From Fistulifera solaris (Eukaryota), in contig AP026162.1 of the NCBI GenBank assembly GCA_030295235.1, positions 1,860,001-1,924,000 on the forward strand: 64,000 bases of DNA, written 5' to 3'. A program made the translations under genes and the position numbers. Under the pieces are notes generated by a model, which had not been told where the DNA came from, ran no database searches, and was given only the letters and a program-made list of their open reading frames with translations. Below are positions 3,146 through 36,945 of the stretch, piece by piece (the stretch's first letter is position 1; each line of letters begins with the position of its first letter).

Positions 3146-3902
3146 TTAGACACTTTCAAAGTCTGTATTGTGGTTTCCGTCTCCAAATTTTACTCTTTGT
3201 TCTTGACCTTCTTCGTTTGTGTCAGTGAATATTGGGCACGGTTCCCTAGAGGCCGCTAATATGATAGGTGCTCCTTCATCTGTCAGTTTGCCGATGTGAT
3301 GAGCATTGATACTTGCAAGACCCTTCATAGCTGATTGCATAGCCACAGAAGCTGCCTCCTGAAAGCTCGCCATGGCCTTCATTGTTGCTCCAATCCTCAT
3401 AGACGGCGATTTACCGGACGACTCGGACACCTGTTGCGAGCTACTGTCGTTATCTGTTCCGTTTCCCGATGCCTCTAGTCTAGCGAACTCGTGAGCAGTT
3501 ACGATTCTCTGAGCCTCGCTTATACGAGTGAGTAAATCGGTGTTTTGTTGTCTGAGTAGTGCATTGGCTCGGGTGAAAAGATGACACTGCGCTGCAGTTC
3601 GTCAACCATCAACTTTTTCCGACGTCGAGACTCACGCGCTGCTTTCCTGTTTTGTTCGAGTCTGTTTTTGCGAGACAATTCTTTCCGTTCCAATTCGTGA
3701 TCATCGATTCCATTTGCAGCTAACATCGCGTTATGGAAAAGCGAGATGGATGAAGACCCGTCTGTTGGGGGCATCATTGGAAAAACCATTCCGAATGAGC
3801 CCGAATCGGTTTCCTTCGCGATCGAAGAAGACCCCCACACCCTTCAGCGCTCATTTTGTAGCGAATAGGTACTTCTTGGCTGCGTGAATCATGGGAATCC
3901 AT
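3146..3902 (-). CDS. bZIP transcription factor (paralog B)
   Basis: RLEQNRKAARESRRRKKLMVDELQRSVIF(F)TRANALLRQQN after correcting homopolymer frameshifts near 3833 and 3578. Shares the GATMxAMASFQxAA block with paralog A; no intron at the position used by A. Confidence 0.8.
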
Positions 3903-23156: not shown

Positions 23157-24101
23157 TTATCTTTTAAGCTTAGATTTTGTTCCGACCAAAACGCCAACCG
23201 ATAGGCCTACCATTAGAGGAAGTATCCCCTGCCACAATAACACAGAAGCTGTACCACCTTCTTCCTCACTATCAGATCCGGAAATCCACGACAAAGCGGG
23301 CATCAAGGAAAATGGGAATTTTGACGCCAAGTCACTCCCGAAGAATGAAGATTTTCGCAATGTAGACGGCCGCTTTTTCAACACGGCCTTGCTCGCAAAG
23401 TCATCCGAATCTTGAATTTCTTCAAGCCACCGAACAGCCTCCTCCGCTGTCTCGACAAAGTGAATCACTTCGTCTGGTGTTTGTTCCAATAATCGGTCTT
23501 CATACGCACGTTGCATCATTTCCACAAAAGGCTGATAAAAATGATCCACGTTGACACAAACGATTGGTAAGGAGTTGTGCAATCCTAGTTTCCGAGCACA
23601 TGCCATCTCCCAGAGTTCATCCCACGTTCCAGGACCTCCTGGTAACACCACTAGCGCGTGTGCTCCTTCTACCAACAGCCGCTTTCGCTCCTGCAAATCC
23701 GGTCCATCCGCAATCAGCATTTCTCGAATCGGTCCTTCCTTGTTCGATGCTTTGTCAAACACCGAATGAGCGCCGCCGTCACGCAACGTCTTGCCTGTCG
23801 GTGTCGACGCCCAATCCCCCTGATCGACCAGCCACATTTTGTGAATGACACCCACAATGTGACCATTTCCTTCCACGGCACCATCGTTCATGGCGGCCAT
23901 GCAACCAAAACTCCCTGCTCCATTGACACAGGTGTGCCCTCGTTTCGCTAAAATGTAACCCAGATTTCGGGCTTCTTTCAAATATTTCTCGGGAGTTTTG
24001 GAAGAAGACGAACCGTAGCAAGTGACCCGCAAGGATCTCGAGGCGGGTTGTCGAATAAAAGCAGATTGGAGGACGTGGTCGTCGATGGTAATGCTGGTCA
24101 T
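23157..24101 (-). CDS. LOG: LOG family nucleotide phosphoribohydrolase (so-called lysine decarboxylase family) with C-terminal hydrophobic tail
   Basis: CYGSSS, ARNLGYILAKRG, GAGSFGCMAAM, ERKRLL and the PGGPGTWDE signature (PGGxGTxxE). Confidence 0.88.
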   Translation of the reverse strand: MTSITIDDHVLQSAFIRQPASRSLRVTCYGSSSSKTPEKYLKEARNLGYILAKRGHTCVNGAGSFGCMAAMNDGAVEGNGHIVGVIHKMWLVDQGDWASTPTGKTLRDGGAHSVFDKASNKEGPIREMLIADGPDLQERKRLLVEGAHALVVLPGGPGTWDELWEMACARKLGLHNSLPIVCVNVDHFYQPFVEMMQRAYEDRLLEQTPDEVIHFVETAEEAVRWLEEIQDSDDFASKAVLKKRPSTLRKSSFFGSDLASKFPFSLMPALSWISGSDSEEEGGTASVLLWQGILPLMVGLSVGVLVGTKSKLKR

Positions 24102-24864
24102 GTTTGAGAACTCAGTCGTATTAACAATGAGAGATTGATTTGGCAGCAACTGTTGCTTTTTTTATTGTTATCGTTTCAGTTTCCCGTCTTCTACTGGGTA
24201 TTACGGAGTATTTGTTTTCTTTTTGCGGCGGTTGGCAAGTGCGAAACCCGTTGTGAAAAGAGCGCGAGCGGCGGAATTTCAAATGTCGTCGTATCCGTGA
24301 CTGGTAGTTCATTTCCATGACTCAGTGGATTAGTAGTGTTGTGGACTTACTTTTCCCGTAGTTTTCCGCCTGCGACATCAACCTAAAGCGCACAACGCGT
24401 AGTCGTCCATAACAGCAAAAAAGTTTTTTTTATGGACTCTTAATGTCTTGTCGGGAGCTGGCTCGCATCGAAGCATGGCCATTTGATTTGATTCGCAAAA
24501 ATATTGCGACGACAAGTGCCGTGACTGCAAGTGAGTTGAGACCCATAATTCGGAAATCAAAAACGACGGCTCTTCTAGTCTATCCAATATCCAGTTCAAC
24601 AACACTAATGACAGCAACTGCAATAGTTTGTCAAGACTTGGGCAAGAATCTGCAAGATGAGCACCCTTACACTATGATTACGTAAGCTACTTGACAAAAA
24701 TCAATACCCAGATGCAATCCGGCTGGTTCCCGCCCCTATCCGATCGAAAGAATGATAGCACCGTTTTACTCAGCAATGAGCTATGAAAGCAGAAAACACT
24801 AAACGTTTCATCGGCCATCGGCCATCGAGCTATCGGCTATCGAGCCCTCTTTGCTCCACGCTCC

Positions 24865-25301
24865 ACGTCACATCCACTCACATTTGAAGAAAATTATGCA
24901 GTCCTTCATAGAGTCTAAAGGAGTAAGTAGGTGTCGCAGTTGAAGTAATAGAATTATGAACGACCCAGACGCCACGTCATAAAAGTGACGTAACCATGTC
25001 GTCACCCTGCACCTTGTTACTGTACTACGTTAAGCAACGTGCGAGGTCCGAGGTGGAGGTCCGAAGTCCGAACAAAAGTGCCACGTCGAGTGAAAATTTA
25101 TCATGTAAGAAATGTACCATAACCAGAATCGCTCTTACGTGGACTTGAAGCTGCAGAATAGTCACTGAAAAGTACGACTACAATCAAACTCAGACTCAGC
25201 AATCACGAAAAGTGACGTAATCATGTCGTCATAAACGATGACGTAACCAAGTCGTCACCTTTTTCTTCGACTGTTTGGAAGATTGCCACGTAGGATGACG
25301 T
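24865..25301. promoter_or_regulatory. Dense bZIP-type element cluster with three TGACG-N9-CGTCA inverted modules upstream of the ABCC gene
   Basis: ACGTCA at 24865 and 24974; TGACGT at 24986, 25213, 25239, 25296; several GCCACGT half sites. Confidence 0.7.
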
Positions 25302-25488
25302 GACCGCTCGTACCAGTTTACGTAGCGGGTGCGGCAAACATTCGCAAACAACAATCTCATCCTTTTTGATGATTTATTCGGCCCCTCACAATTCTCTCGA
25401 GACGTCGACTTCATTGACACCATCTCAAGTTTTCTGATCAAAATCGTTTCTATCGAGAGTATAAACGGTTGATTATCACGTTATCATC

Positions 25489-28400
25489 ATGCCCGGTCCA
25501 TTTGCCCCGATTACTGGAGGACGCGTTTCCGAGGTGGTCAACCAGGAGGCCGCCTTGTGCAAGTCCTCCTCCTGCCTTCCGACGTCGAACAAAGAGAACA
25601 AGGTCGACAAGTTCTGCAAGGATTACGAAGACTTTATCAGTGTTTCAGATGCACACAAGACTTTCATCAGCAACTGGGAACAGGAAAAGAAAAAGACTGA
25701 GCAGCCGGACGAGAAACCGTACAAGATGCTCTTGCGCTGTTTGTGGACGTCCTTCCGTTACGATTTCTTCAAGGCATTTTTCTCCAAACTCACGTGGTCG
25801 GTGCTTGTCATCTTTTCGATCTACTACTTCGTTTTCGATATCCTCGACTTCATCAACAAGCGCGACAAGGAAATCCCCATCAACAGGGGTGAGTACTACG
25901 AGTTCTACCTCTGTGGAGGTTTCTTCGCTGCCATGTTCGTGCTGTCGATTGGTATCCAGCAAATGGGTATCTACTCGTCTATTTTGGGCTCTAAAGTCAA
26001 GGCAGCACTGACGACCGAGATCTACAAGAAGATGATTGTTCGTGATCCGTACGGATCCAAGGCGGATGTCGTAGCGCTCGTTGCCAAGGATGTCGAGAAG
26101 CTCGCTGAAGCCTGTTTGAGTTTGCAGTACTTGTGGTCTGGTATCTTCGAGACACTCGCTGCGTTGGCGGTCACGCTTATCTTGTTGGGTGCCACGATTC
26201 TTCCCGGCGTCGCTCTCATGGCAATCTTCATGCCGCTTCAGTACTACATGGGCATGGTCGTCGCCTACCGTAAGAAGGATTTGGCCAAAGTCTCAGACAA
26301 GCGCATCTCCCTCATGGAAGAAATCATGCGCAGTATCAAGCTCATCAAGATCTACGGCTGGGAAGCGTCTTTTTTCAAAAATCTCAACGAAATTCGCGCC
26401 GAAGAGAGTCGCTTGGTTGATGGAATCAACAACTACAAATCAACTATTCTCGGTTTGATCTTCTGCTTGCCTCCTATGTTGTGCGTTGTCATTTTCGGAA
26501 CAAAGGAAGCGATGGGTGAGATCGAGTCGGTTGTCGTGTTTACCGCCATGTCCTTCTTCAACACGCTGCGTGTGCCCTTCTCCAAGTTGCCCAAGAGTCT
26601 CCGCGATGTGCTCGACGCCTTGTCCAGCATGGAACGTATCCAAGCCTTCTTGCTCGAGCCAGAATTGAGTGTCGCCGAGAAAAAGAACGACGCGCCTTCC
26701 AATCACCAAGGCATTACCTTCCGCAATGCTTGCCTGTCGTACGGAATGGACGGAGCCATCTTGTTGAAATATGTGAACTTGAACATCCCGCAAGGCGCGC
26801 TCATGATGGTGGCTGGATCGGTTGCTTCAGGAAAGTCCAACTTGTTGAAATCTATCCTCGGAGACATGACCATGCGCAGCGGCCAGTGTCTCACGCCGGC
26901 ATCGAAAGCTTACGTTCCACAGACTCCTTGGACCGCTTTGGGTACCGTGCGAGACAACATTGTTTTTGGCTTGCCCTTCGATGAAGCTTTCTACCGCAAG
27001 GTCATCTTCGCTTGCGCCTTGGAACCCGATTTGAAGATGATGCCCCTCGGAGACCAGACCTGGATCGGAGAACGAGGAGGTAACTTGTCCGGTGGCCAGA
27101 AGCAGCGTATTGCCCTCGCCCGTGCCGCTTACAGTCGCGCCAAGCTCTACGTGTTGGACTCCCCCTTGTCGGCCGTCGACATGTACACTTGTCAGCACAT
27201 CTTCAAGCTCTGCATCAAGGACATCATGATTGCTGGTGGCGGCACTGTCGTCTTGGCCACCCATCAGACGGAATTGTTCTACATGTCGGATCATTTGGTC
27301 GTGATGAAGGAGAACAACGTCGTGTACAACGACAAGTACTCCTTCAAGGGCATTAAGCATCTTTTCCCCAACTTTTGCGGTGACGAAGTCGCCGAGAGCA
27401 CCTAAGCTGGTTCTTCCCAAAAGTCGAACATCCCGCTCCCTCGGACCCACACACCGACCCGCAAGATATTTTGGAACACCCCGAACATGGCGTCAAGGTA
27501 ACACACGATGCCTTGGTCCCTCTCAAGCGTCACCCACCCATGACCCCGTCGCCGTCGACAAAGAAAATCATAACCAAGCCACACGCAGAGAGCGAAGGAA
27601 GCATTTACTGGTGGTACATCCAGAAGATCGGCGTTTGCTTGTTCACCACCGCGACTTTGATCTTCATCATCGGCCAGATCTTCCGCGTGTACAGTGACAA
27701 CTGGGTTTCAGTCTGGACCAAGCGCAAGTACGAGCCGGAACGCACCGCCGATTCTTTCTATGCCGGTCTCTACGGCTTGTTGGTCTTTGTCTTTTGTGCA
27801 TGTCCTTCTTGCGTGCCTTCTTCTACTACCGCACGGGCAAAGTTGGCGCCATGAACATTCACGATGCGGCATTTGGTGCCGCCCTCAAGGCACCCATGCA
27901 CTTCTTCCATGTCACACCAGTCGGTAAATTGTTGGCCTTCTTCTCCAAGGATGTCGAAATCATTGACGATCAGTTGGTCGACAACATCCTCATGTTCCAA
28001 ATCATGTTCTGGATCTTTATCATGGCTTGCGGTGTTGTTGCCTATAACTTGGTCTTCTTTTTGGTCATTGTCGCTGGTTTGGCCGTCGTGTACATCTACA
28101 CCGTGTACAACTACATCCAAGCCTCCGTCCCTCTCATGCGCGCCGCGGAAGAGTCTGGTAGTCATGTCGTCGCTCACACGGCCGAGACATTGAGTGGATT
28201 GGCTGTGGTCCGTGCTTTCCGCATGGAAGACCGATTTGTAAACGAGAACGTCGGATTGCAAGCCAAGTCGGCCGTCGCTACCTTTTCCATCGCCAACCTA
28301 TCCTTGTGGTTGGCCTACCGCGTCGACTTGATCGGTGCCCTTTTGGTGTTGGGTTGCTGTCTGTTGGCCGTTGTCGACACCTCCATGGACGCTCCTATTG

Positions 28401-29359
28401 CCGGGTTGATTGTCAGTAACTCATTCCAAATTCTCTTGTTCTTCAGTATCATGTCTCGCTTGATGGGTGACTTCCACGACAACATGAAGTCCGTCAACAT
28501 GGCCCGCGAGCTCTGCGACTTGGAAGCCGAGCAAGAACCCGAACAAGAAGTCGAACCCCCGGCTCAGTGGCCGTCCAAAGGAGAAATCCGATTTGAAGGT
28601 GTTGTCATGCCCTACTTGCCCGGTCAACCACCCACGCTCAAGGGTATCAATTTCAGCATCGGGGAAGGTGAAAAAATCGGTGTCGTTGGACGTACGGGTG
28701 CCGGCAAGAGTTCTTTGATTGTCGCTTTGTACCGTTTGGCTGAAATCTCCGAAGGAAGCATCCACGTCGACAACATTAATTGCGCGAACGTCAACCTGCA
28801 CAAGCTTCGCAGCAGCATGGCCATCATTCCCCAAGAACCTGTCATGTTCTCTGGTACGCTCCGTTATAACTTGGATCCCTTCAACCAACACACCGACGAG
28901 GCACTCTGGGATGTTTTGAGAAAGTGCTTGTTGGGCCCTGTCATCGAAAGCAACAAGGACGGCCTGAATACCAAAGTCGAACTTATGGGCTCCAACTTCT
29001 CGCTCGGCACCCAGCAACTGATTTGCTTGGCCCGTGCCATGTTGAATCCATCCCGCATCTTGTTGTTGGACGAAGCGACCGCGGCCCTCGACTCCGATAC
29101 GAACGCGGCCGTGCAACAGGTCTTGCAGAAGCACTTCTCGCACCGAACCATTTTTACCATTGCGCACCGTTTGGACACTATCATTGATTCTGATCGCATT
29201 TTGGTAATGAATGCTGGTGTGGTTGCCGAGTTCGACACACCGCACAATTTGTTGGAAGACCACGATTCGATCTTCCATGAGTTGTGTATGAACACTGGTA
29301 AGGCACAGTTCGAAGTCCTCGCCGCCCGAGCCCGTGCTCTTGCCAATGAGAGGAAGTAA
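25489..29359 (+). CDS. ABCC/MRP-type full ABC transporter (TMD-NBD-TMD-NBD, no TMD0)
   Basis: NBD1: GSVASGKS, LSGGQKQRIALARA, LDSPLSAVD. NBD2: GRTGAGKS, FSLGTQQLICLARA, LLDEATAALD, IAHRL. No introns seen; indels near 27400-27420 and 27795 split it across three ORFs. Confidence 0.93.
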
Positions 29360-30025: not shown

Positions 30026-32166
30026 TCAAATAAAATACCGCTTTACTCGCAGTTTATCTAGTCCGCAAGTCATAGCAGAAAGTGTTGTCTTCAATTCCTC
30101 AGCTATATCTTGTAAGCGAACCATCCCTTGGTCCTCTTCTTCACCCGCGGGTCCCCATAAAATAGCCGTGTCTCCTACGCAAACGGAAGCGCCAACCTGG
30201 TCTTCTTTGTCTCCGACAGGTCCAAGGTCTACCATCATCATGTCCATACAAATATTACCAGCAACGGGGAACACCTTCCCGCGAATTTGGACTTTGCCAA
30301 CCCCGTTTCCCAGTGCCCGAGGGTACCCATCCGCAAACCCAATCGTCAACGTACCTATCCTGACATCATGCGGAGCAACGTAGGCGCGGTCGTAACCGAC
30401 GCTATCGCCAGTCTTTAGGATTGCAACATGCCGTATAGATGCACAAAGTGTTGATACCGCTTTTAGTTGCGGAAAAGCAGGACGCTGTCCAAAGATGGCA
30501 CCTCCGACCCGGACAAATCCTCTCGTGTTAGAGCCGTCTTGGCTAAGAATTTTCTCCGCGTCGAAATGTGTAAGAGACGTCGTAAGTAGTGCTGCCGAGT
30601 TATCTGTGCTCACAGTAGGAATATTGATCCCAGCAGCTCTAACTCGATTTAAAAGCCAGATAAACTTCTCCATCTGGGAATGAGAATATGTTGACGTTGC
30701 GTTGGCTTCGGCCATGTGGGTGCACATGCCGAAAAATTCAATCGGAGCATTGGAGAGAATCTCTGCGTCCACCAATTCTTTCAATATCTCAATCGTATCG
30801 CGTCGATGTTCATTTTCATCGGGCTTGTCGACTTTAAAACCAAGTCTTCCCATTCCTGTATCAACTGAAGCGTGCCATCGCAACCTTTTTCGTACTGCCA
30901 TGGAGAGCGCGGCCGAACTCGTCGTTGTGTTTCCGCCATCCATTTTACCAAAAGTTCCCATATTTTGATTGTTGTTCATCTTTGCTAGTTCGCGAGCCCT
31001 AGCGTTGCGTGCTTCCGCGTCAATGCCCGCAAAAACGGAACACGTCTTACGAGTTTGGGAATCTGAGAGAGGCGCCGGCACAAATACTTGTCTTTCTGTA
31101 TCATGGGAATCCGTCGAGGAGTTATCAGTTGACACTGGATTTGATGCAAGGGCTTTTCCCTGACGCTCCTCGAGTTGACTTGCCGCTTCTTTGGCGGCTC
31201 TTTGACCCAAAAGGAGTGCCCTTACTTCTTTTGCGAGATCCTGGCCTTGAACATTGCCGAGCGTACTAGACGGGTAAATGAGTGATTGTCGACTAATTGG
31301 GCGACTATCCTCCGTCCCAGAATCCTGGGGATTCCAAAGCGAATTTTGTGTAAGGTTGTCTTTCAAAACGTTTGGCAAGTCCAGATTTACCGGTACTTTA
31401 AAGTTGTTGTGTAGGACCTGTTCAGCATCCCGTGGACCAAGCGGTGCAAACAGAGCTTTCGCTTTAGCTTCATTCGCCGCCTGTTCCACTTCAACACATT
31501 TTCTTTCCTTTGAATTTCTCACCCATGCCAGTAGTTGCTCCGCTACTTCGGGACCTGACACCATCAGTTCGATTCCATGATACAAGTATTCATCAAAGCA
31601 CCGTGGAAAATTAACAGGTGGTCCCAAAACGATGATACGAATCCGAGAAGGTCTCATACTCGGATTTTTCACAGAAACCTGTTCCCCTCCGTTAGTTTGG
31701 GTTGATGATGCTACATTTTCCCAGAAAGAGGGATGACTGCTATCCAGCGCTACGGGAAAATGCGAGGCAAGCTGTTTCGACCAACGGCCTGGAGGGTTAT
31801 TTTCAAACGCCCGACGCAATTGGATGGCTTCTTCAAGGGTCGCGACTGCAAAGCATCCGCCCCGCAGCAATCCGCGAGATGCAAGGCGGTCGCAATGGCG
31901 CCGTGGCCGTAACCATCGGCTTTGACCACGGTAATAACCGAGCAACTCTGTTCATTCGCGGCTGCTTCGACGCACGCGTAGTTGTGCTCCAGTGCCGACA
32001 AACGAATACGATGTACAACCCTCTGTTCTCCCTCTTTTGATTTTGTAGTCTTGCTGAGTTGCGCTTGCTCATCTACAGCAATGCCTTTCGTTCGACCCTC
32101 CGCCTCGGGTGTCGGTAAATTTGACGTACTGCAATGATAGCTTGAAAACGGCCTGAGATGCGTCAT
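30026..32166 (-). CDS. alr: Bacterial-type (fold type III PLP) alanine racemase with large insertions
   Basis: VVKADGYGHG (PLP lysine), FAVATLEEAIQLR, DTGMGRLG, NSAALL, VGYDRAY (catalytic Tyr), GFADGYPR, GNICMDM. One-base frameshift near 31850. Confidence 0.9.
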
Positions 32167-34363: not shown

Positions 34364-35078
34364 AATGCATTCATCAATCAATATTTAGTTATCATCGTTG
34401 TGTTTGCGCGCAAGGAGCAAGGAAATCATTTTTCGTCCGTGTTCGAAAAAGATCCATCTTCGTGGATGTCGCCTCGATACTCAATCACTATACCTTCGAA
34501 GTGTATATTACTTTTTTCGACTGAAACCATCTCGCCGGTCCCGTAAAAATTGACACCCTCCATTTCAATGAAACTCACACGGAGTCTTCAACATAGACGA
34601 TGAGGAAGCACGTAACTTTAGTCCAAAGCTTGACTTTATGAAAGAATCGCTATGACAATTTCTAGGAAAAGCCTTCTCTTCTATCAACGTGCAATTTTTG
34701 TCCCGAACTCTTGTTTTGTCCTTAACCCTAATTTGACTAGCCGGCGGAGGAGTTTTCCGAGGCGCTGACTCCGTTTCGCATTTTCTGACTTTGTTCATTG
34801 TGATGTTTCGATCCAATTTCGATGTAATCAAGGGCTCACAAATAATGTAAAGACGTATGCTTCTTTGACGCGTAGAGAGATCCTTCGAGAGCGCTATCAT
34901 TGTCTTTCATTACTTCGCAGTGCAGTGAACGGCGAACACACAATTGATCATTCGTGACCTTTCTCATTATTTCATCATTGTCGGGTGGGTCCTGCTGCAC
35001 CAGTTCCTCCCATCGGTTCGGGGATTTGTTTACTACAAGAGACGCTCTTTCAGTTCTACCACTTCTACGCTGCTCAAC

Positions 35079-36945
35079 ATGCACGACGTCAGTATCCACT
35101 GGTATCGAAATGGTCTCCGATTTCATGACAATCCGACCTTGCTCGATGCTTGTCAGCAATCGAAAACCATGCTACCACTCTATGTAATCGATCCAGAAGT
35201 TCCCTTTGCACAGACACAAGGCCTCCGACCCGCATGTATTCGTGCTAATTTCGTTATGGAATCTATTCAAGAAGTCGATAAAAAATTACGAAACATGAAC
35301 AGTCAAATGATCGTCATCTTGGGGAAACCGAAGCAGGTAATTCCGGAAGTTGTGGCGCTTTTCGGTGCTTCGGCATTGTACTATGAGCAGGAAGCGGCCG
35401 CCCCGATTCGCAAAGCGGACGCAGAAATCTTGCAGGAGCTCAAAAGCAAGGTGGGGAAGGATTGTGATTGCAAGGGTTACCCCACTCATTCGTTGCATCC
35501 GATGGAACTGTATCTATCCAAATGCAAAGGCAATGTCGCGCCATCCTCGTACGGGGCGTTCACGAAGATTTTTAACAACCTCAAAGTACCGAAAGAAGTG
35601 GAGGAAGTGACACAAGTGCCTCCATTACCGGAGGATGCATTGCGTAAGCTGAAGGACAAATTTGGAGAGCAATTTCGGATGCCGACGTTAGAAGACTTGG
35701 GTTATGAGAATACCAAAGAGAAGCTGAAGAATCGTGCAAAAGGTGGGATTGATTTTATTGGAGGAGAAGACGCTGGTTTGAAACTGCTTCGATATATGAT
35801 GAGTCGCAAACAGTGGGTTGCCACCTTTGAAAAACCGAACACCAGCCCAAATGCTCTTAAGGTCGATACAACTGGATTGAGTCCTTGTAAGTTTGTTTTG
35901 GATCATGCTTGAAAGGATTTTGCGTATGACTAACATGACATATAGATGTGAAGCACGGATGTGTATCGCCTCGGACATTCTACCACGAATTATCAAAAGT
36001 CTACGCCCAGTTCAACTCGAAGGAAATCTCGAAGCCACCTGTATCCTTGCATGGGCAGTTGATGTGGCGAGAATACAATTATCTGATGGGCTACAGCACT
36101 CCAAACTTTCATCAAATGGCGGATAATCCTGTCATGCGACAAATCCCATGGGACGACGATCCTCAGCTTTTGAGTGTATGGGAAAACTCGCAGACGGGAT
36201 ATCCTTTTATCGACGCACTCATGACCCAGTTTCGCGAAACAGGATTTCTTCATCATCTCGGACGACACGCAGTAGCTTGCTTCTTAACAAGAGGCGACCT
36301 TTGGCAGAGTTGGGAGAAAGGTGCGGAAGTCTTCGAGTATTATTTGGTTGATGCCGATTGGTCGATTAACAATTTCAACTGGCAATGTAAGTTTTGGTTG
36401 TTTCAGAAAGCATCATTCTTCATCTAAAAAGCTCCTTTCTCTGACTTATGTGGTTATTTACAGGGTTGTCTTGCTCGGCGCACTTTTACCAGTATTTTCG
36501 ATGCTATAGTCCGGTGGCGTTCGGTACGTGCCTTGCTTCTCGTGTCGCTATGACTGCCGCCGCGTGTGGACCTTCCTAACACAGTCGTATCGTTTCAATA
36601 GGCAAGAAGACTGATCCTGATGGCACTTATATCAGGAAGTGGCTTCCCATGTTCAAGGATATGCCGTCGAAATTTATTTACGAGCCATGGGAGGCTCCCT
36701 TGGCGGTGCAGGAGAAATGCGGTGTCATCATCGGAAAGGATTACCCTTATCCGATCGTTGATCATAAGATCGTTAGCAAAGATAACATGAGTAGAATGAA
36801 GGAAGCGTACGATTCTCAGAAAAACGGTCTGCCCATGCCGGAATCACAACCTGTGGAAACGAATGAAAAGCGTATCACTTTCGCCGATTCTTCCAACTCG
36901 GACGACGCGTCACATGAACCAGATAGCAAGCGCAGGAAGAAATAA
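35079..36945 (+). CDS. CPF1: Cryptochrome/(6-4) photolyase CPF1
   Basis: HWYRNGLRFHDNP, TTGLSPYVKHGCVS, GQLMWRE, HHLGRHAVACFLTRGDLW (both (6-4) catalytic His), WLSCSA. Introns 35887..35945, 36387..36463, 36524..36601; ends SKRRKK. Confidence 0.93.

Follow-up and report, generated by a model that had tools for sequence, protein, structure and literature searches.

The gene examined here, FisN_12Lh325 of the diatom Fistulifera solaris, encodes a short transporter of the ABCC family (protein P0123) and lies on the forward strand at 25489..29359 of the window, that is, the whole stretch of 64,000 nucleotides that was analysed (assembly GCA_030295235.1, contig AP026162.1, positions 1,860,001 to 1,924,000). 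The gene is very probably intact and belongs to the subfamily that comprises the Chlamydomonas proteins HLA3 and CrMRP2, and within this known group of transporters it apparently represents a diatom branch that has not yet been described. The function proposed for it, by analogy with HLA3, is that of a low-CO2-induced, abundant plasma-membrane pump that would import bicarbonate independently of sodium; the whole of this chain is given a probability of roughly 0.4. Among its parts, induction at low CO2 is fairly probable, and the import of bicarbonate, taken on its own, is possible at somewhat below even odds. More doubtful is the wider proposition that diatoms biased to fresh or brackish water independently recruited an ABCC of the HLA3 subfamily as a sodium-independent, ATP-driven bicarbonate importer under the CO2/cAMP promoter code. 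The literature searched, which included PMC5948301 and PMC5983714 and mostly lay outside subscription papers, yielded no account of an HLA3-type transporter from a diatom.

Gene structure and integrity

The gene starts at ATG 25489, reaches its stop at 29359 and codes for 1290 amino acids when intact. The protein carries, in one chain, two transmembrane domains (TMD1 and TMD2) and two nucleotide-binding domains (NBD1 and NBD2) in the Pfam order TMD1-NBD1-TMD2-NBD2, and its first ATP site is degenerate, as in full ABCC (MRP) proteins; no TMD0 family matched the intact 1290-residue protein, in agreement with the initial annotation, which had described a full ABCC without TMD0. All four domains lie on the forward strand: (i) TMD1 at 25894..26577 (Pfam ABC_membrane match, residues 136-363), whose first helix begins at about residue 92; (ii) NBD1 at 26764..27168, with the Walker A motif GSVASGKS, the signature LSGGQ and, after Walker B, a Ser that replaces the catalytic Glu; (iii) TMD2 at 27600..28490 (ends approximate); and (iv) NBD2 at 28637..29083, with the Walker A motif GRTGAGKS, the Q loop PQEP, the signature FSLGTQQ, the Walker B motif LLDE and the H loop. 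By eye, the N-terminus appears hydrophilic and has no obvious targeting peptide.

The absence of introns, also proposed at the outset, is borne out by the three reading frames that together tile P0123; wherever the two were compared, their amino acids differ nowhere except at the breaks. Two environmental orthologues (L129 and L132) are divided into pieces, as by introns, so the intronless state is not a family trait. Separately, the metagenomic orthologues P0009 and P0012 have a C-terminal domain of the HSP20 family, which is either a fusion or a gene-calling artefact.

Three breaks interrupt the window copy: an in-frame TAA at 27403 and the loss of one base in an A run at 27418 (27403..27418, forward strand, in the linker between NBD1 and TMD2), and the loss of one base in a T run of TMD2, at 27791-27793. 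They had been taken for frameshifts, a description that suits the two one-base losses and not the stop codon. The extra base at 27418 is present in contigs of sequencing runs X1, X2 and X5, and that at 27791 or 27793 in contigs of runs X1, X2, X3 and X5, the four runs used here, X4 and X6 having been set aside for their small share; both losses are assembly errors. The TAA is probably an assembly error as well, because P0123 has Gln at that position. The assembly analysed (G000) holds four copies of the gene, namely C1 (the window copy), C2 (94% DNA identity) and the pair C13 and C14 (85%), which match four named whole proteins of 1286-1290 amino acids. That the window copy might be a pseudogene is hardly credible: although it has the in-frame TAA, whose correction by reads is not among the 40 contig substitution rows listed (of 522), the otherwise identical P0123 is intact, independent contigs correct both indels, and all four assembly copies have frame breaks while the four public proteins are whole.

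Placement in the ABCC family

The initial annotation had called for a phylogeny of ABCC proteins, and the resulting trees place the diatom proteins in one subfamily with HLA3 and CrMRP2 at a support of 100/100, both under LG+G4 (22 rows) and under the C20 mixture (30 rows); a quick 55-row tree agrees. In the three trees, this subfamily is separate from MRP1, YCF1-like proteins, plant ABCCs, CFTR and the other ABCCs of F. solaris. A CFTR-like grouping was not found, as CFTR falls outside the subfamily in trees whose root was placed on the outgroup, with the long CFTR branch used as root. The partial proteins of two of the seven other ABC loci (L054 and L056) were excluded. Two further rows, Cladochytrium as outgroup and P0416 as an HLA3-like protein, were placed elsewhere by the tree and kept out of later ones. 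At the level of single residues, the diatom protein has the subfamily type in 29 of 62 diagnostic columns and the classical type in 10 of 59.

Searches that followed TMD1 through 1.84 billion representatives led, after the close homologues, to proteins of Apocalathium, Andalucia, Gloeochaete, Volvox, Lapot and Cyanophora, the dinoflagellate Apocalathium being the closest named non-diatom relative (44% identity). The Volvox protein led in turn to Cre02.g097800 and Cre17.g734612, which a supplementary table names CrHLA3 (P0477) and CrMRP2 (P0471), respectively (PMC9605142). Word-based searching, whether it started from the diatom protein or from its profile, did not list HLA3 among the matches, and the ESM Atlas returned generic ABCC clusters only. 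In Edaphochlamys debaryana (clusters P0389 and P0398), HLA3-like genes form an extended tandem array.

An ordinary glutathione-conjugate pump of the MRP1/YCF1 type is the reading that the initial annotation had set against its own, and it is now very improbable. The diatom protein shares about 30-32% identity with MRP1, YCF1-like proteins and plant ABCCs, and among solved structures it matches ABCC4, MRP1 and ABCC3 best, all of which would be compatible with such a role; nevertheless, the joining of the diatom rows with these classical MRPs was rejected by the approximately unbiased (AU) test (p=8e-64), and the substrate pocket differs. Fourteen residues line the leukotriene C4 (LTC4) pocket of MRP1 (PMC8267652) and were mapped via alignments to solved MRP1 and a fish MRP1 row. 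The diatom protein keeps 3 of them (K332, M1093 and R1249), HLA3 5, CrMRP2 6 and a separate MRP1-like gene of the same genome 11; HLA3, CrMRP2 and the diatom proteins all have Leu where MRP1 has R1197. Basic residues of the membrane part (K100, K366, K369, R945 and R991) are invariant in 16 close homologues, which fits an anion as cargo without naming one.

Promoter architecture

In Phaeodactylum, the response of PtCA1 and PtCA2 to low CO2, and probably also that of PtBST1, is driven by both-strand TGACGT clusters (PMC11142338, PMC4915529, PMC7378808), which are known as CO2/cAMP-responsive elements (CCREs). The six TGACGT/ACGTCA hexamers reported within 630 bp upstream of the ABCC gene are indeed there (four and two, on both strands, at 24865..25301, with starts at 24865, 24974, 24986, 25213, 25239 and 25296), so that the promoter has the motif pattern of a candidate CCRE-type promoter. 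Shuffled upstream DNA has a mean of 0.94 sites, and only 1 of 5000 shuffles reaches six. An inverted pair, TGACG-N9-CGTCA, occurs three times, once at 24986..25004 and twice in tandem at 25213..25257, the latter kept in the C2 copy; its left arm accounts for three of the six hexamers. The 9-base spacer is not special: it has 90 matches across the genome, whereas a spacer of 8 bases has 86 and one of 10 has 66, and the inverted pair is consequently regarded as a local repeat. Closer to the gene, a proximal module with two ACGT cores (25285..25353, forward strand) is conserved in all four copies and duplicated upstream of C2. A search of 51.7 Mb found the 17-base core of this module 5 times, in each case upstream of one of these four genes, vs 0 for the control, and the module is kept in the C13/C14 pair even though their farther upstream DNA does not align with that of C1/C2.

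Several controls strengthen the promoter argument of the initial annotation. The best 630-bp window of the four copies holds 6, 5, 5 and 4 distinct sites, and their first 630 bp upstream 6, 3, 3 and 4. None of the upstream regions of 144 random open reading frames (ORFs) has more than 2 sites; among 234 random 1500-bp pieces, mostly coding DNA, none reaches 4 and five reach 3; and five other ABCCs have 0-1. By comparison, 3-4 sites are found at 4 of 12 SLC4 loci (the remaining ones have 1) and at 4 of 10 bestrophin loci, counted irrespective of orthology to the low-CO2-induced Phaeodactylum genes; a set of 17 bestrophin loci has 0-3 sites at most. The classic CCRE gene could not be used as a control, because no beta-carbonic anhydrase (PF00484) candidate was found in the assembly, a result that does not establish its absence. 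Beta-carbonic anhydrase is the classic pyrenoid enzyme of Phaeodactylum.

Upstream DNA was present for 6 of 10 metagenome loci with orthologues; for L125 and L131 it was not located, and L133 and L134 (30-32% identity) lay outside this analysis. Together, the six regions contain 11 sites vs 2.46 expected, each having at least one, and no shuffle out of 1000 reaches that number; shuffling, and not other promoters of those species, served as the control. The downstream DNA of the same loci has 2 sites vs about 1.5 expected.

At C30:29094-40026 and C31:43671-48182, a local cluster of SLC4 genes that are almost identical to one another (L077, L080, L092 and L078) combines a raised codon bias with 3-4 sites, and these are likely the low-CO2 SLC4 set of F. 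solaris. Upstream of the C13 copy (L057:6729-9387, reverse strand), genes with Pro/Thr-rich repeats (ALPTP-like tandem units) occur. In the window, a LOG/lysine-decarboxylase-like (SLOG) gene at 23157-24161 on the reverse strand is divergent from the ABCC gene and shares with it a 1.4-kb intergenic region, the motif cluster lying on the ABCC side.

Codon usage

Codon bias was expressed as the share of TTC, ATC, GTC, TAC, AAG, AAC, GAC and CAC among the codons of those eight amino acids. With indices of 0.71 and 0.69, the ABCC frames are the highest of 45 scored in the window, which upholds the strong bias noted at the start: VPS13 has 0.36, eIF5 0.53-0.60 and the better WD40/RACK1 frame 0.61. 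In a sample of ORFs of at least 250 amino acids, taken from 390 kb of the assembly chosen irrespective of content, 1 of 137 reaches 0.60 (mean 0.39, standard deviation 0.07), which puts the gene in the top 1% of sampled genes. The C2 copy has 0.65, C13 0.67 and the short C14 frame 0.47. Judging by this codon use, the protein is presumably made in abundance. Among the datasets listed as containing the sequence, none was recorded as RNA. The four runs used consist of contigs, and those of run X1, guessed to be RNA, cover the intergenic DNA evenly and give no evidence on expression either way.

Codon use also bears on whether the protein could be a metal-tolerance or detoxifying pump like CrMRP2, a rather improbable reading. 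Its BLAST score is 719 bits to CrMRP2 vs 662 to HLA3, and CrMRP2 has been described as a predicted vacuolar transporter that gives cadmium tolerance (PMC9605142). However, none of this genome's other ABCCs resembles the gene in having so extreme a codon bias and in being retained in four copies (six of their frames have indices of 0.22-0.46), most MRP1 glutathione-pocket residues are missing, and a table of the same paper predicts CrMRP2 at the cell membrane and the protein was not induced at 12 uM Cd (PMC9605142).

Distribution and habitat

Among the matches listed (120 rows), at least 60 clusters have at least 54% identity to the diatom protein, and they are mostly metagenomic; 14 of the 60 were examined individually. 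The named holders are F. solaris, Gedaniella sp. CCMP2646, Fragilaria crotonensis and Cyclostephanos tholiformis, and no name of Phaeodactylum, Thalassiosira or another model marine diatom appeared among those 14 clusters. Fragilaria crotonensis lives in freshwater and the dinoflagellate Apocalathium hangoei in brackish water. Cyclostephanos tholiformis is likewise a freshwater species (PMC12044402). Contigs without any substitution relative to the window occur in run X2, which is labelled as a wetland metagenome. A non-marine bias of the range is thus suggested, from four named species. Elsewhere, five putative HLA3 proteins have been reported in the marine seaweed Ulva (bioRxiv 10.64898/2026.07.16.738900), and ABC transporters of Nannochloropsis are induced at very low CO2 (PMC6599299).

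The range gives some weight to the idea that the protein uses ATP to carry a different inorganic anion (chloride, phosphate or sulfate) or maintains ion balance in dilute water, and that bZIP factors control it in response to light, salt or nutrients. A freshwater species is found among the named holders, matching contigs come from the wetland run, the subfamily spans non-photosynthetic protists, and aureochromes also bind TGACGT (PMC4937327). On the other hand, the habitat bias depends on those four named species, and the site clusters found in the genome sit at SLC4, bestrophin and bZIP loci; this second-ranking alternative is unlikely.

Proposed function and alternatives

In the proposed mechanism, bZIP factors at the clustered TGACGT/ACGTCA sites would switch the ABCC gene on at low CO2, in the same way as diatom carbon-concentrating genes, a step suggested by the motif clusters and the company they keep. 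The protein would sit in the plasma membrane and hydrolyse ATP mainly at its single canonical site. As the least certain step, the pump would import bicarbonate without sodium, beside the sodium-coupled SLC4 route, as HLA3, a plasma-membrane bicarbonate transporter, suggests by analogy (PMC10096703). Reviews present HLA3 in Chlamydomonas and SLC4 in diatoms as separate solutions (PMC13159521, PMC5853789), one of the two leaving room for further diatom uptake routes and naming sodium as a possible driver. The diatom SLC4 that has been characterised works only above 100 mM sodium, which raises the question of how diatoms of dilute waters take up bicarbonate. If HLA3 and the diatom protein do share a function, it would reflect parallel recruitment and not inheritance, because the subfamily predates carbon uptake and a different role has been described for the sister of HLA3.

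A number of findings weigh against bicarbonate import at low CO2. In terms of phylogeny, the proposed likeness to HLA3 holds for the subfamily and not for orthology: joining the diatom-containing clade with HLA3 alone was rejected (AU p=5e-11), the sister of HLA3 is CrMRP2, and the diatom protein is equally close to both, with 13 of the columns that distinguish the two like HLA3, 13 like CrMRP2 and 40 like neither, so that HLA3-specific residues do not prevail. A diatom clade sister to HLA3 plus CrMRP2 has a support of 50/43, and this joining was neither established nor rejected. The subfamily includes Capsaspora, Andalucia and other non-photosynthetic organisms; carbon uptake is, therefore, not a general subfamily role. 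F. solaris also keeps about 12 SLC4 loci. As for expression, one orthologue has a weak codon bias (0.37), and 2 of the 6 orthologue upstream regions are not enriched singly (p 0.34 and 0.42). The TGACGT hexamer is, moreover, the aureo box bound by aureochromes (PMC4937327), and the window contains a second six-site cluster, at 2537-2964, upstream of a bZIP gene. Tandem bZIP genes, each apparently with an intron in its bZIP region, lie at 1480-2481 and 3146-3843 (both on the reverse strand), 22 kb from the ABCC gene, and six and four TGACGT/ACGTCA sites precede them, possibly for bZIP self-regulation; the cluster consequently marks a bZIP regulon and not carbon uptake alone.

The direction of transport is a further difficulty, for ABCC proteins are normally exporters. 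This usual direction favours an exporter of a small organic anion (e.g., glycolate), induced by low CO2 or high light, that would relieve photorespiratory overflow; the invariant Lys and Arg residues listed above suit any anion. Diatom photorespiration genes carry the same upstream motif (PMC7378808), a fact that also tells against carbon uptake as the sole meaning of the promoter. Nevertheless, the literature searched attributes organic-acid export to no subfamily member, and the best-studied one, HLA3, imports bicarbonate (PMC10096703). Such an exporter is unlikely, while being the foremost of the alternatives.

Should bicarbonate import hold, diatoms would have a third route of carbon uptake, parallel to green-algal HLA3. 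F. solaris produces oil, and the gene offers a named, testable candidate for its carbon uptake; it also opens another branch of the HLA3 subfamily with which the unusual inward transport of HLA3 can be compared. Should the cargo prove to be something else, the gene would still stand out as an ABCC whose codon bias is very strong and whose bZIP-type promoter is conserved, undescribed in the literature searched.

Other genes of the window

Directly downstream of the ABCC gene, at 30026-31951 on the reverse strand, lies an alanine racemase gene (Pfam N and C domains) with a long insertion, which is unusual for a eukaryote. A gene of the photolyase/cryptochrome family is found at 34929-36427 on the forward strand.

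Comparison with known systems

Chlamydomonas HLA3 (CrABCC1, Cre02.g097800) is, like the diatom protein, a short ABCC without TMD0 and belongs to the same fully supported subfamily, with 35% identity (455/1283); both have K..W in helix 1, PQEP, SLG and Leu for MRP1 R1197. Apart from not being orthologous, the two differ in their cavities (e.g., K366, and Ile for W1246) and in their control, as HLA3 is under CIA5/CAS and not a known CCRE. Location, induction and transport have been measured for HLA3 (PMC10096703), whereas the diatom protein is known from its sequence alone. Chlamydomonas CrMRP2 (CrABCC10, Cre17.g734612) is of the same subfamily, also with 35% identity, but it is described as a cadmium-tolerance protein (PMC9605142) and is not sister to the diatom group.

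The CCRE1-3 elements of PtCA1, PtCA2 and PtBST1 resemble the ABCC sites in having TGACGT and ACGTCA clustered upstream on both strands (PMC11142338, PMC7378808). The ABCC sites, recognised as motifs in the DNA, differ in lying 190-625 bp before the ATG and in forming a three-copy inverted pair plus a conserved two-core module.

The pumps of the MRP1/ABCC1, YCF1 and plant ABCC type share the ABCC architecture and one degenerate ATP site with the diatom protein, which in turn lacks TMD0, keeps few of the MRP1 pocket residues (3/14) and falls in a separate clade. Finally, diatom SLC4 is comparable in its regulation, since four F. solaris SLC4 loci combine a TGACGT cluster (3-4 sites) with a raised codon bias (0.59-0.64), and differs from the ABCC in its unrelated fold and in its coupling to sodium, of which PtSLC4-2 needs >100 mM Na+ (PMC5853789).

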